Of a stretch of DNA of 11,715 nucleotides, positions 4,430 to 7,357 are shown piece after piece. The stretch's first letter is position 1. Each line of letters begins with the position of its first letter. The translations under genes were made by a program, and so were the position numbers. The notes under the pieces are model-generated. The model was not told the DNA's origin and searched no databases. It saw only the letters and a program-made list of their open reading frames with translations. The DNA is from a virus (taxonomy: Duplodnaviria; Heunggongvirae; Uroviricota; Caudoviricetes), in IMG/VR virus record IMGVR_UViG_2778261201_000003, positions 1-11,715 of that record. One strand, written 5' to 3'.

Positions 4430-5347
4430 TTAAGTTGTTGGATTTTGGCTTTTATCTTCTTTGTAAGAAAGAAGGTCACACATCAAATTAACTACCTTGC
4501 TGAATTGGAAAAGGTCAGTGCCAGTCTGATGACGCCACTGGAATGCTTTATCATCTTCATCATTAAATGTCTGAGATTGAGTATTGATGCGCGAAAAATG
4601 GAAATTTTCGGTAAGAATGAAGGTCACACCGCAACCGGATAACTCCATTTTATCAGCAGTGAAACTACTACTAAGGCTATCGGCCAGTTCGCTTTGAATT
4701 GACTCATGCTCAGCTGAGTAGCGAATAATTTCCTTTTGATCTGCGTAGCGTGATAGCTGAATATAATTCCCGACAGTGAATCCTTCAAATGCATTGGCTG
4801 CACCATTGATGTAGTTCTTCAGGCGTGTAGTCAGTCCATTCTTGATATCACTGATGTTGATTGTTTCTGTTTTCACTGAACCGACAACCTTAATCAGCAT
4901 TGCGCATACCATACCGGCTATTATTTTATTGGTTGTGTTGATTACCAATAATTTCTCATCAGTGCTGTACAATGCAAGAATCAGCGTAGACTTAACAAAT
5001 GCCTGTTTGCATAGATCTACTCGTACGTTATCAATAATGGCCAGTCGTTCGGCACGCTTTAATTTATTCCCGGACATATTTTCGATTGTTTGGATTCGAG
5101 AATTAGCTTCTTTCATGACGACATGTCGGGGAATTATTTTCTGATCATGACGGATTACCATTGCGTACCCACCAGATATCGGAGTTACCAGTTCACCAGT
5201 GACAGGATTCTCTACAAAAGAGGACCGTGAAAATTCTGTTTCCCCGATTTCAGAATAAGGGAGTTCGAGAAGATGCCCTTCAATAGCCTGTATACTAGGT
5301 AATGTTGCTCGGTACACAATTGCGTTACGAAATTTTGGTAATTTCAT
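4430..5347 (-). CDS. RdgC-like recombination-associated protein
   Basis: Start at ATG 5347 (MKLPKFRNAIVYR...) with GAGGAAAA RBS, 305 aa; N-terminal FRN..VYR and KIIPRHVV segments parallel E. coli RdgC. The open frame extending to 5497 is GC-rich non-coding read-through. Confidence 0.7.
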   Translation of the reverse strand: MKLPKFRNAIVYRATLPSIQAIEGHLLELPYSEIGETEFSRSSFVENPVTGELVTPISGGYAMVIRHDQKIIPRHVVMKEANSRIQTIENMSGNKLKRAERLAIIDNVRVDLCKQAFVKSTLILALYSTDEKLLVINTTNKIIAGMVCAMLIKVVGSVKTETINISDIKNGLTTRLKNYINGAANAFEGFTVGNYIQLSRYADQKEIIRYSAEHESIQSELADSLSSSFTADKMELSGCGVTFILTENFHFSRINTQSQTFNDEDDKAFQWRHQTGTDLFQFSKVVNLMCDLLSYKEDKSQNPTT

Positions 5348-5397
5348 TCTATTTTCCTCTGCACAAGATATTAGTTTCTCCACAAAACAGAGAAGAA

Positions 5398-5745
5398 CAC
5401 CTGCGGTGGCAGCCGCCCGGATGGATTGGGTTATGAGCCCGTCGTCCGGTGATGCTCTTCTCTGTTTTGTAAAAAGAGCGGTACCAGCCGGAAGCAAGTG
5501 TACAAACTGGTACCGCGAGGACTACACACAGCATAAAGTTGTGGTGCCGGGTGCCTCCCGGTGCCTGGCGAAGGTTGCACACCAGGCGGGTGGGTATCCA
5601 CAGAAGGTCGACTGTCAGCCTCAACCTTAACCCGCGTGCGCTGAGCCGCATTCACCACAACGCTAAGGATTCTCTCTGGTTGAAAATACTTAGCTGTTAT
5701 GTGCCTGTCTTTTCACCACTTCAGGCTCGGTGGTATCCTTTTAAG
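5398..5745. other. GC-rich, hairpin-dense non-coding element (candidate structured RNA or regulatory region)
   Basis: Four overlapping ORFs in different frames, all Arg/Pro/Gly-rich and not protein-like; perfect 10-bp inverted repeat GCGGTACCAG/CTGGTACCGC (5478-5516); further stems CCGGG/CCCGG (about 5546-5560), GCCTGG/CCAGGC (about 5564-5588) and GTGG/CCAC (about 5592-5603). Confidence 0.3.
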
Positions 5746-5770: not shown

Positions 5771-6016
5771 ATGACTTTTGATGAAAAAGAACTTGATAAT
5801 GCAATTAATAAAATCATCGTAACGTCGCTCTTTTCCTGTCTCAGCGACACTCAGCAGAAACAGTTCTACGAATCGGCTTTCAACATGATCGAGCGTTGTT
5901 GTTTCTGCGATGCCGACGAGCTACCTGAAAAAATCAGGAAACAGTTGGCTGATGCTCTTCGAGTGCGACTTTCTGACCAATTTTCTGAAATGTACTCTCC
6001 GAATTTGGACAAATAG
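5771..6016 (+). CDS. Hypothetical small protein, reverse-oriented moron-like gene
   Basis: 81-aa ORF with AAGGAAA RBS; upstream candidate promoter (TTCACC, 16-nt spacer, extended -10 TGgTATCCT at 5712-5739); 12-bp bulged hairpin at 6026-6051 after the stop. Confidence 0.4.
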   Translation: MTFDEKELDNAINKIIVTSLFSCLSDTQQKQFYESAFNMIERCCFCDADELPEKIRKQLADALRVRLSDQFSEMYSPNLDK

Positions 6017-6209
6017 AAAAAGGCCATTTCCATTCAGGGTCTGATGGAAATACTTCAGCCTGTTCCAAAGCACGGCGTAAAGAGAATACAACTCCAGCCA
6101 TAATCTGATGTTTCCCATTGGTCCAGCTATCGCCGCTCTGATCTACAGGAGCGGCTATGTCGTATGACCAAACGACTTCACCACTATTGTTTAAAATCTG
6201 GACTTTCAT
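5934..6209 (-). CDS. Hypothetical protein (91 aa)
   Basis: ATG 6209 with GGAGG 12 nt upstream, just after the zinc-ribbon gene stop; its 3' end overlaps the plus ORF 5771-6016 by 83 bp, so one of the two may be spurious or shorter. Confidence 0.4.
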   Translation of the reverse strand: MKVQILNNSGEVVWSYDIAAPVDQSGDSWTNGKHQIMAGVVFSLRRALEQAEVFPSDPEWKWPFSICPNSESTFQKIGQKVALEEHQPTVS

Positions 6210-6217
6210 TTTGTTCT

Positions 6218-6421
6218 TTAACCTCCAGATTTCCGCGCATCTAAAGGCGCATTCTCATTTGGTGTGAACTGAATAGTTGTGCTGATATTGATTAATGCCC
6301 CGACACACAAGACTACGCACTCAGAGCAGATAGCAACTTCATCTTTTCCGCCTTTGGCGATGATTTTTTTTGCCTGCAGCTCGTTTGCGCCACAAAACGA
6401 GCATGTGAAATAACGGTTCAT
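6218..6421 (-). CDS. ClpX-type zinc-ribbon small protein
   Basis: YFTCSFCG...AICSECVVLC gives a CxxC...CxxC pattern closely resembling the ClpX N-terminal zinc-binding domain; start chosen at ATG 6421 (alternative ATG 6439 has no RBS). Confidence 0.6.
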   Translation of the reverse strand: MNRYFTCSFCGANELQAKKIIAKGGKDEVAICSECVVLCVGALINISTTIQFTPNENAPLDARKSGG

Positions 6422-6519
6422 TTGCGCTCTCTTACACATAGTATTTAACGAATCATCCGGTCATTCATACGCCACCGGCGGCTACTTCGTGGGCGTCCTG
6501 CCTGTTCGTTGTTTCGCTT

Positions 6520-6555
6520 GGGTACATTATGTATCTCAAAGGTACATTGTCAAGT
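6520..6555 (-). promoter_or_regulatory. pL-like early-left promoter with candidate repressor operators
   Basis: Minus strand -35 TTGACA (6553-6548), 16-17 nt spacer, -10 CATAAT/ATAATG (about 6531-6525); GGTACATTATGTATC (6521-6535) overlaps -10 and GGTACATTGTCAAGT (6541-6555) overlaps -35. Confidence 0.5.
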
Positions 6556-7267: not shown

Positions 7268-7357
7268 AAAGAAATTAAAACCTTTGTACCGATAAGGTAC
7301 AAGTATCTTGAAGGTTCATGCTAATCATGTAATATGTATATCGGAGGTACATATTGT
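7268..7357. promoter_or_regulatory. Divergent cI/cro switch region with palindromic operator-like sites
   Basis: Perfect palindrome TTGTACC-gataa-GGTACAA (7284-7302); GGTACATATTGTATG (7346-7360) nearly identical to the pL-region site; candidate pR (TTGAAG 7308-7313, TAATAT 7330-7335); candidate leaderless pRM-like promoter on the minus strand (-35 TTGTAC, -10 TTTAAT ending 7 nt before the cI ATG). Confidence 0.45.

Follow-up and report, generated by a model that had tools for sequence, protein, structure and literature searches.

The window examined here is an 11,715-nucleotide (nt) stretch of a virus of the class Caudoviricetes (IMG/VR record IMGVR_UViG_2778261201_000003), a prophage integrated at dusA, and it holds a GC-rich block between an RdgC-family gene and the small genes upstream of it. 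This block probably consists of two structured RNAs side by side, each transcribed from the minus strand within the early-left (pL) transcription unit: a divergent member of the STnc100 small RNA (sRNA) family, here called element 1, and a tRNA-like RNA that follows it, here called element 2. The assignment is carried by a covariance-model match that places element 1 in its family, by folds that covary in both elements, by the strand on which these folds form, by the lack of any conserved reading frame and by the position of the block downstream of pL.

A sequence-only reading had singled out the block as GC-rich and dense in hairpins. Its G+C content reaches 0.59 between 5401 and 5600 and 0.55 between 5501 and 5700, compared with 0.39-0.43 on either side of it. 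A repeat finder returned the landmarks that had been named: a perfect inverted repeat with arms at 5478-5487 and 5507-5516 that are 100% complementary and carry GGTACC in either arm, and the near-tandem GGTGCC repeats CCGGGTGCCT (5547-5556) and CCCGGTGCCT (5557-5566). The other GC-rich stems that had been mentioned are also present and include a 25-nt inverted repeat (5382-5406 and 5446-5470) that had gone unlisted, the region 5374-5470 having been seen merely as 'further stems'. To call the block open in four frames was fair, since two open reading frames (ORFs) of 74-100 amino acids (aa) overlap it on each strand, together with a TTG-started 5' extension of the RdgC frame. When folded as minus-strand RNA and compared with dinucleotide shuffles, positions 5700-5465 gave z = -3.9 and positions 5475-5348 gave z = -7.0. 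The block is 96-99% conserved in SfV-like phages and has matches in 2786 of 5426 complete E. coli genomes (BLAST). Its functional limits, at about 5374 to 5694, are slightly wider than first drawn. The proposal of a structured non-coding RNA in the early-left operon has held up, as the helices covary on the operon strand and no frame is conserved. The claim that the block is undescribed and explained by no annotation fails for most of its length, because 5469-5691, which make up two thirds of it, exceed the gathering score of Rfam family RF02076; for 5374-5470 it stands.

Element 1 and the STnc100 family

A scan of the whole window against Rfam at gathering thresholds gave a single match, RF02076 (STnc100), on the minus strand at 5691-5469, with 49.1 bits against a gathering score of 47, E = 2.8e-8 and coverage of model positions 1-206 of 206. 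The covariance model matches the minus strand only. The helices P1, H4 and H5 and the terminator stem align as pairs to the RF02076 consensus, and the core blocks UGGUGAAU and CACCGGGAGGCACCCGGCACCA are present, aligned to that consensus and common to 113 distinct Enterobacterales domains. The landmarks seen earlier find their place in the model: the GGTACC hairpin and the UCUUUUU behind it form the terminator stem, with an 18-nt insertion in the loop, and the GGTGCC near-repeats, read on the other strand, give hairpin H5 (CCGGG-AGGCA-CCCGG) and the 3' strand of P1. By these matches, element 1 is classed as a divergent member of the STnc100 family, a known and common prophage small RNA.

STnc100 is among the most frequently annotated bacterial sRNAs and has no function assigned (PMC9029176). 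In E. coli O157:H7 EDL933, 11 copies are transcribed and one was confirmed by northern blot (PMC5331693). The copy of Stx2 phages lies just downstream of stx2B (PMC12370729, PMC12711010), where it overlaps the Hfq-bound EcOnc27/sRNA103 (PMC12711010). Relatives accumulate as discrete, Hfq-bound RNAs of about 160-210 nt (PMC5331693, PMC12711010).

For the analysis of the core, an exact-word scan with a 19-nt core word was run on one genome per species and gave 120 loci, mostly from Enterobacterales; together with the phage loci, these yielded the 113 distinct domains, which are 95-147 nt long. A subfamily of 20 sequences has the GCGGC-type first hairpin of the window and includes, besides the window, SfV, mEp460_4F5, ST64B, 118970_sal3, phiES15 and the P1-like SJ46. 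RNAalifold on these 20 sequences returned P1, P1a, P2, H4 and H5. In the same set, 87.5% of the cells in core pairs were paired, compared with 31-48% when the partner was slid by 1-3 columns, and pairs changed on both sides were found in P1 (3), P2 (3) and H4 (4). Alignment-free counts over all 113 domains showed the P1 outer pair beyond GGUG/CACC as U-A in 76, C-G in 27 and U·G in 7, and H4 as 85 distinct stems with a mean of 7.1 base pairs (bp) against 3.75 bp in cross-sequence controls. Junction and loop sequences of the core are near-invariant across the 113 domains and the peripheral hairpins variable; such a junction might hint at a dedicated partner, a protein or a ligand, and less at plain seed pairing.

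Besides the five helices there is a pseudoknot between the strand next to P2 and the H4 loop, and this pairing is supported by covariation. When the 3' strand had to lie in the H4 loop, 50% of the 113 domains showed 6 or more consecutive Watson-Crick pairs, against 5.8% of cross-sequence controls, and 78 distinct strand pairs were seen. Compensated versions of the pairing are AAGGCUG/CAGCCUU in phiES15 and UGGUUAU/AUAACCA, GGCAAA/UUUGCC and CAGUUAA/UUAACUG in other members. These tests were alignment-free because the two strands are out of register between clades in the MAFFT alignment, where 46.7% were paired. No earlier description of an STnc100 pseudoknot was found; as a covarying feature shared by the family, it offers experimenters concrete structure mutants.

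Between core and terminator lies a U/G-rich linker, 16 of whose 21 nt are unpaired in the minimum free energy (MFE) fold, the remaining five entering a weak 5-bp helix with the U-tract. It is partly conserved in ST64B and phiES15 and is a candidate Hfq-binding or seed region. The GGTACC hairpin that follows has 10 perfect and 2 wobble pairs and a loop of about 15 nt, and stands, G+C-rich, directly before the U run (UCUUUUU, U5). It looks like the intrinsic terminator of element 1 and would be the first strong one on the pL transcript. A simple terminator scan misses it because the loop is longer than 8 nt. Phages without the STnc100 core have this hairpin, too, in front of element 2. A boxA-like sequence at the terminator, CGCUCUUUUUAC, was rejected as a boxA, the variants CGUCCUUUUU and CGCCCUUUUU showing that the motif is unconserved.

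The core also occurs in other surroundings. A complete STnc100-type core, with one base different in the H5 loop, is present in phage P1 (L123, AF234172 about 70060-70200), in the leader of the ban operon between upl and tciA, directly upstream of tciA and near tRNA genes and a dicF-like region; it is unannotated in the detailed P1 record. P1-like phage-plasmids, represented by SJ46 (L129), likewise carry a complete core in that leader. In about 12 species, Kosakonia, Klebsiella and Enterobacter included, a KdgM-family porin gene (PF06178, E = 4.8e-72) has a canonical core 80-225 nt upstream of it, in many cases with no T-run between core and gene (L022, L028, L034, L037, L039, L047, L052, L061, L078, L088, L106, L120); this may be a chromosomal, leader-like context. 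Tandem arrays of 2-3 copies, 220-350 nt apart, were seen in Superficieibacter, Enterobacter and others (L045, L063, L044, L040, L116, L091). In 118970_sal3 (L127) and in L094, L100 and L102, a longer insert, closed off by a helix of 9 bp, stands where element 1 has its 5' hairpin, with two T-arm-like hairpins (CUGG-UUCGAUU-CCAG and GUCCG-UUCAAUU-CGGAC) in which ARAGORN finds no tRNA. In ST64B (L124, 409-597), C4 antisense RNA and isrK are found nearby by Rfam. The STnc100 family reaches into early-left operons and phage P1, and most of the subfamily to which the window belongs escapes the Rfam threshold. Identity with the sRNA IpeX of DLP12 was rejected, as the nmpC-essD region of K-12 has no core motif, and so was identity with svsR, which in the lambdoid NC-SV prophage is a C0293-like RNA with another location, at the 3' end of cI. 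K-12 CPS-53 was also discarded as a carrier, neither element being present there.

Element 2 and its likeness to initiator tRNA

Element 2 starts directly after the terminator U-tract and folds into a three-way junction of a long stem and two arms, with fold z values of -7.0 and -7.3. With the variable arm 2 removed, a set of 36 distinct sequences had 93.6% of its cells paired, compared with 40-54% after sliding, and 8 pairs were changed on both sides, among them 12:75 (G-C in 25, C-G in 11) and 7:80 (C-G in 18, A-U in 12). The mismatches of the long stem comprise 58 G·U cells and 6 A·C cells on the minus reading, which points to an RNA of the minus strand more than to a DNA site. Lengths of 97, 98, 99, 100, 116, 118, 121 and 122 nt were recorded. 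With 20 bp, 95.7% paired across the 36 sequences, the long stem is predicted to be a substrate for RNase III, which takes near-perfect double-stranded RNA of some two helical turns, or at least 20 bp.

The apex of arm 1, CG-A-CGGGCUCAUAACCC, is identical at 16 of 17 nt to positions 26-42 of the E. coli initiator tRNA metZ, a stretch that comprises the anticodon loop CUCAUAA and three G-C pairs. Element 2 thus has an anticodon-like stem-loop with a 7-nt loop. It has neither a D arm nor a T arm with a T-loop, and in place of a 7-bp acceptor stem with discriminator and CCA the window form has its stem of 20 bp and then GGAGAAAC. Relatives from Salmonella, Klebsiella and Pantoea phages retain the motif; its conservation is judged from these BLAST-found sequences because the word used to search IMG/VR contained the anticodon-like motif. 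A short form of 70-72 nt, termed class B, occurs in the late region of Klebsiella-type lambdoid phages, directly after tRNA-Asn, tRNA-Arg and a GAUAAU spacer, and has a 6-bp terminal stem and, as its end, CAGGCC-R-CCA. The arm 1 helix covaries between the forms: CCUGAUG/CAUCAGG in class B, CCGGACG/CAUCCGG in the window and ACGGAUG/CAUCCGU in Pantoea phage PA-1. In one Klebsiella-type phage from IMG/VR (L146, 597-675), Rfam places isrJ next to the tRNA-Asn/tRNA-Arg/element-2 cluster.

Rfam gave no match to element 2 even at E = 10, and the Rfam tRNA model matched neither element 2 nor the class B form. ARAGORN found no tRNA in the window or in the class A/B relatives, relaxed thresholds included; the calls made on element 2 in its relaxed and mitochondrial modes were spurious, on the complement strand, and were rejected. 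A text search of the literature for the sequence of element 2 returned nothing. Element 2 is treated as a separate, unclassified RNA and as a lead to a possibly new tRNA-like family. Judged from the extent of the whole-block BLAST matches, it may occur in up to half of complete E. coli genomes.

Element 2 also occurs without the core. Positions 5371-5516, which hold element 2 and the GGTACC hairpin, are 98-99% identical in the core-less phages mEp460, Stx2a and Stx2c, and the element 2 piece is about 84% identical in ST64B, sal3 and a Klebsiella phage (BLAST). Out of 107 long-stem loci in IMG/VR, 32 have an STnc100 core about 119 nt upstream and 75 have none; hence, the elements are regarded as independent modules that often travel together. 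Mosaic boundaries are sharp at 5370/5371 and at 5516/5517. Similarity of the SfV type begins at 5371, where rdgC replaces the yfdP-like orf32, and in mEp460 just the final bases of helix P1 (CACCACAAC) remain. In Pantoea phage PA-1 (L255, about 1470-1600) the order is reversed, with the terminator and element 2 followed at once by a start like that of helix P1, GUUGUGGUGAAU, beyond which the STnc100 core is unrecognisable.

Operon setting, proposed working and rival readings

The features of the block and its surroundings are collected in Table 1. An E. coli locus that is 99.8% identical and was annotated by the Prokaryotic Genome Annotation Pipeline (PGAP), L002, has the order integrase, dusA fragment, several genes, yfdR, rdgC, a 'frameshifted hypothetical protein' pseudogene, a hypothetical gene and an XRE/S24 repressor, beyond which PGAP places a cro-like gene and ymfL. 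The predicted pL lies just past the terminator of the repressor gene (6581-6562). A 17-mer operator, TGTAYNNNNNAGGTACA, is present in five copies, two at 6510-6546 overlapping pL and three at 7285-7351 in the cI-cro gap; together with pL, these putative operators give a lambda-like oL/oR layout. The sequence-only reading was therefore right to place the block in an early-left operon, and from the position of pL the RNA block lies about 830 nt into the transcript. Along this transcript come a 73-aa ClpX-type zinc finger protein, a phrog_3195 protein, the RNA block and the RdgC-family gene, whose Shine-Dalgarno sequence GAGGAAAA is about 10 nt upstream of the ATG at 5347.

The first of these genes (6218-6439, minus strand) has a ClpX-type C4 zinc finger (PF06689, E = 1.4e-10), and its product could be relevant to early regulation or antitermination. 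The second overlaps an ORF on the opposite strand: 5771-6016 on the plus strand matches phrog_3311 and 5934-6209 on the minus strand matches phrog_3195, each with E below 1e-54. Both the SfV record (orf33) and PGAP have the minus-strand ORF alone, and hence probably no more than one of the two is real. The conserved block at 5697-5739, which also occurs in phiES15 and L060, may be a 5' extension of element 1, a processing site or an unrecognised promoter.

Table 1 Features of the RNA block and of the early-left operon in the window
Feature	Position	Strand	Basis
Predicted early-left promoter pL, TTGACA-16-CATAAT	6553-6526	minus	promoter scan, 11/12 matches
Conserved block upstream of element 1, hairpin ACCACC...GUGGU	5697-5739	minus	86-93% identical in unrelated loci L018 and L090
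Element 1, 5' hairpin before the core	5662-5694	minus	inverted repeat, MFE fold; Rfam alignment starts at 5691; outer 5' part of the model
Element 1, pseudoknotted core domain of STnc100 type, five helices	5538-5661	minus	Rfam, RNAalifold, pair counts
P1, closing helix GUUGUGGUG/CACCACAAC	5661-5653 with 5546-5538	minus	
P1a, bulged hairpin	5649-5634	minus	
P2	5633-5629 with 5591-5588	minus	
Pseudoknot, AAGGUUG (5628-5622) with CAACCUU (5577-5571, H4 loop)	within 5571-5628	minus	alignment-free tests
H4	5587-5563	minus	
H5, CCGGG-AGGCA-CCCGG	5561-5547	minus	
U/G-rich linker UUUAUGCUGUGUGUAGUCCUC, core to terminator	5517-5537	minus	MFE fold
Predicted terminator, GGTACC hairpin then UCUUUUUAC	5470-5516 (hairpin 5516-5478)	minus	inverted repeat, fold, Rfam terminator stem alignment
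Element 2, tRNA-like three-way junction	5470-5374	minus	fold, covariation
Element 2, long stem, 20 bp	5470-5451 with 5401-5382	minus	
Element 2, arm 1 helix	5449-5443 with 5423-5417	minus	
Element 2, anticodon-like stem-loop CGGG-CUCAUAA-CCC	5428-5441	minus	likeness to metZ tRNA-fMet
Element 2, arm 2	5416-5403	minus	
RdgC-family gene, first gene 3' of element 2	4430-5347	minus	Pfam PF04381, E = 1.4e-30; PGAP annotation of L002

The working proposed for the block is pieced together from its position, its structures and its relatives. After induction, polymerase from pL would transcribe the two small genes and then element 1. Polymerases that are not terminator-resistant would stop at the GGTACC terminator, which would take the role of lambda tL1, and the stopped transcript would end in a stable, highly folded STnc100-type RNA with its terminator and U-tail. 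This RNA would be released by processing, or made from an unrecognised promoter of its own, and would act in trans as an Hfq-associated regulatory RNA like EcOnc27/sRNA103 and the related PasD. Element 2 would be made on read-through only and would sit at the start of the delayed-early mRNA as a module for its processing or stability; this mRNA codes for rdgC here and for yfdP-like genes elsewhere. RNase P might recognise element 2 as tRNA-like, and RNase III might recognise its 20-bp stem. Termination, release, Hfq dependence, action in trans and the processing of element 2 are all inferred.

Several observations weigh against this reading of the block. The margin by which element 1 passes the RF02076 threshold is small, and Rfam at gathering misses the homologous domains in ST64B, sal3, phiES15, SJ46, P1 and L094; since none of these six is called, the subfamily of the window stands at the edge of the STnc100 model. 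Four positions of P1a are marked as non-standard pairs in the Rfam alignment; the helix nevertheless forms an equivalent bulged hairpin within the subfamily, as judged by pair counts and RNAalifold. The invariance of H5 and of part of P1 in the core set comes partly from the search word, which required them. The loop of the terminator is unusually large, and the terminator is a predicted one. No sigma-70-like promoter was predicted by scan on the minus strand upstream of 5694, the block 5697-5739 included; as pL is repressed in the lysogen, the RNA may therefore not be made there. Discrete expression and association with Hfq have been reported for other copies of the family, from which they are carried over to this one by analogy. 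In many relatives the core is followed within 20-130 nt by a ribosome-binding site (RBS) and ATG, with no terminator, and the genes after it are unrelated (KdgM-type porins, holins, tciA and yfdP-like genes). Such terminator-less, gene-proximal contexts would fit a cis element as well as, or better than, a free sRNA, and a pseudoknotted multi-helix core is atypical of Hfq sRNAs that pair through a seed. As regards element 2, the window form has no NCCA end.

It is accordingly a real, though lesser, possibility that element 1 is mainly a cis-acting operon module which has a protein, RNA polymerase, the ribosome or some small ligand as its binding partner. Its role might be antitermination like that of put or EAR elements, a riboswitch-like leader, or an mRNA processing or stability element. 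The compactness of the pseudoknotted core, with near-invariant junction and loop sequences amid variable hairpins, would suit such a module. So would its orientation, always that of the surrounding operon and often directly upstream of an RBS and ATG, and its presence in the P1 ban leader before tciA, before porin genes and in tandem arrays. In the window the core is directly upstream of a strong terminator; PGAP annotated no N-type antiterminator here, though no dedicated search was made. This alternative was kept as a serious one because of the missing promoter, the marginal score, the terminator-less relatives and the pseudoknotted core. It is opposed by the discrete Hfq-bound RNAs reported for relatives (PMC5331693, PMC12711010) and by the unrelated downstream genes, which share no evident regulated function; one gene family following the core throughout was looked for as a sign of a riboswitch-like role and rejected, none being common to the core loci. 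Moreover, the 75 of 107 IMG/VR loci that keep the terminator and element 2 without the core indicate that read-through is independent of the core, and Rfam returned no match to known riboswitch or ribozyme families.

The likeness of element 2 to the initiator tRNA could be more than a structural echo. In this alternative, which appears unlikely, element 2 mimics the anticodon arm and serves as a decoy for nucleases that cut tRNA-fMet, such as VapC/MvpT of enterobacteria, or is bound as a ligand by the 30S P site, by IF3, by MetRS or by RNase P. The extent of the match, with its three G-C pairs and the complete CUCAUAA loop, is in its favour, as is the fact that the anticodon-like motif is the best-conserved part of element 2 in Escherichia, Salmonella, Klebsiella and Pantoea phages. 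The class B form, moreover, sits in tRNA arrays and ends in NCCA. Shigella and Salmonella, which are hosts of such phages, carry VapC toxins that cleave initiator tRNA (PMC5175351), and phage tRNAs have been proposed to counter tRNA-targeting defences (PMC10264068). Against this, the tRNA-like part amounts to the loop and three base pairs, with no D or T arm, and is rejected by ARAGORN and the Rfam tRNA model; the loop reads CUCAUUA in ST64B, the class B stem contains a G·U pair, and the conservation of the motif in the IMG/VR set was forced by the search pattern. It is similarly doubtful, from the sequence likeness, that 5374-5470 belongs to an undescribed phage tRNA-like family that works by anticodon-arm mimicry, with a long-stem early-left form and a 70-nt NCCA form in the tRNA clusters of lambdoid late operons. 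If the mimicry were functional, it would tie temperate phages to the start of translation in their hosts or to toxins that target tRNA.

The sequence-only reading had also considered a protein-binding or recombination site, and the inverted repeats might act as DNA, be it as a cruciform, as an operator or as a site of recombination or of a mosaic junction. The long repeats themselves (25-nt arms at 5382-5470 and 10-bp GGTACC arms) would allow this, and mosaic boundaries do lie here, with SfV-type similarity starting at 5370/5371 and 5371-5516 shared at 99% with core-less phages. The strand-specific bias of the long-stem mismatches (58 G·U in the minus reading, just 6 of the A·C type) speaks against it, as do the compensatory changes of both arms across lineages, the fit of the Rfam covariance model to one strand only and the true operators, which are 17-mers of another sequence at pL and in the cI-cro gap. 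The role of a DNA site is thus very improbable.

Still less credit is given to a degraded or frameshifted protein-coding gene, even though PGAP called a 'frameshifted, incomplete hypothetical protein' pseudogene over about 5372-5658 in L002, the plus-strand ORF 5406-5630 matches phrog_3651, a 162-aa family, at 1e-49, and one minus-strand frame is free of stops in the E. coli/Salmonella clade. A conserved coding frame had been named as the finding that would overturn the RNA interpretation, and the search for one was negative despite the pseudogene call. The ORFs of the block have no Pfam match; in more distant members that share this nucleotide domain, each of the six frames is interrupted by stops; within the conserved domain the window and ST64B differ by a 1-nt indel, and their translations are unrelated; the length variation of element 2 is not in multiples of three; and substitutions in the block occur as compensatory pairs. 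PHROG families exist for both of the overlapping opposite-strand ORFs 5771-6016 and 5934-6209, so the PHROG match here reflects annotation habit. The PGAP pseudogene and phrog_3651 look like annotation artefacts, seeded by stop-poor, GC-rich RNA genes, and the annotation is corrected in both respects, for the pseudogene and for the PHROG 'proteins' over the RNA block. A retron-like msr/msd RNA, which had been suggested as well, can be dismissed: the two ends of the long stem resemble a1/a2 repeats superficially, but PGAP annotates no reverse transcriptase in the 12.4-kb neighbourhood, Rfam gives no match to retron RNA families, and in many phages element 2 stands beside tRNAs or terminators with no reverse transcriptase annotated.

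Comparison with known systems

Element 1 shares with RF02076 the two core blocks, the helices P1, H4 and H5, the 3' terminator, the prophage location and the orientation with the operon. It differs in P1a, which reads GCGGC.../...GC-A-CGC here and CCCCC.../...GGNGGGG in the family and is one nucleotide shorter, and in the insertion in its terminator loop. The contexts reported for STnc100 are the position downstream of stx2B and, as the commonest neighbours according to a preprint, genes of the Fels-1 prophage (bioRxiv 10.64898/2026.05.13.724894), whereas the window copy lies in an early-left operon between the phrog_3195 gene and rdgC; genomic context is not part of the Rfam definition. PasD1 and PasD2 of enteropathogenic E. 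coli were found by Hfq RIL-seq, in which interacting RNAs are ligated and sequenced; they, too, are encoded by prophages, they associate with Hfq, and a relationship to STnc100 is reported for them, with shared ancestry and a common consensus structure (bioRxiv 10.64898/2026.05.13.724894). PasD, compared here by description only, differs in its location near the Q antiterminator and lpxR and in seeds that are reportedly unlike those of STnc100.

The predicted terminator resembles lambda tL1 in being a strong hairpin with a U-tract early in the pL transcript, ahead of recombination and integration genes. Unlike in lambda, no antitermination system of the N/nut type was annotated here by PGAP, one not having been specifically searched for. 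RNase III-sensitive hairpins are known from the early transcripts of phages, as in the N leader, sib and the T7 early sites, and the long stem of element 2 is like them in that 20 bp or more of near-perfect double-stranded RNA stand directly ahead of the next cistron; cleavage here is a prediction. The C4 RNA precursor of phages P1 and P7 is processed by RNase P. With tL1, the RNase III sites and C4, the block has no sequence similarity.

Mimicry of tRNA by an RNA of another function has a precedent in the operator of thrS. The initiator tRNA-fMet genes (metZ/W/V and metY) have the CUCAUAA loop and three G-C pairs that element 2 copies, and the class B relatives further share with tRNAs a 6-bp terminal stem, the R-CCA end and the location in tRNA arrays. 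Element 2 differs from tRNA-fMet in having no D arm or T arm and, in the window form, a 20-bp terminal stem with no CCA. Set beside these systems, what is new is that element 2 is an RNA without an Rfam family and that element 1 is a divergent subfamily member of a known one.

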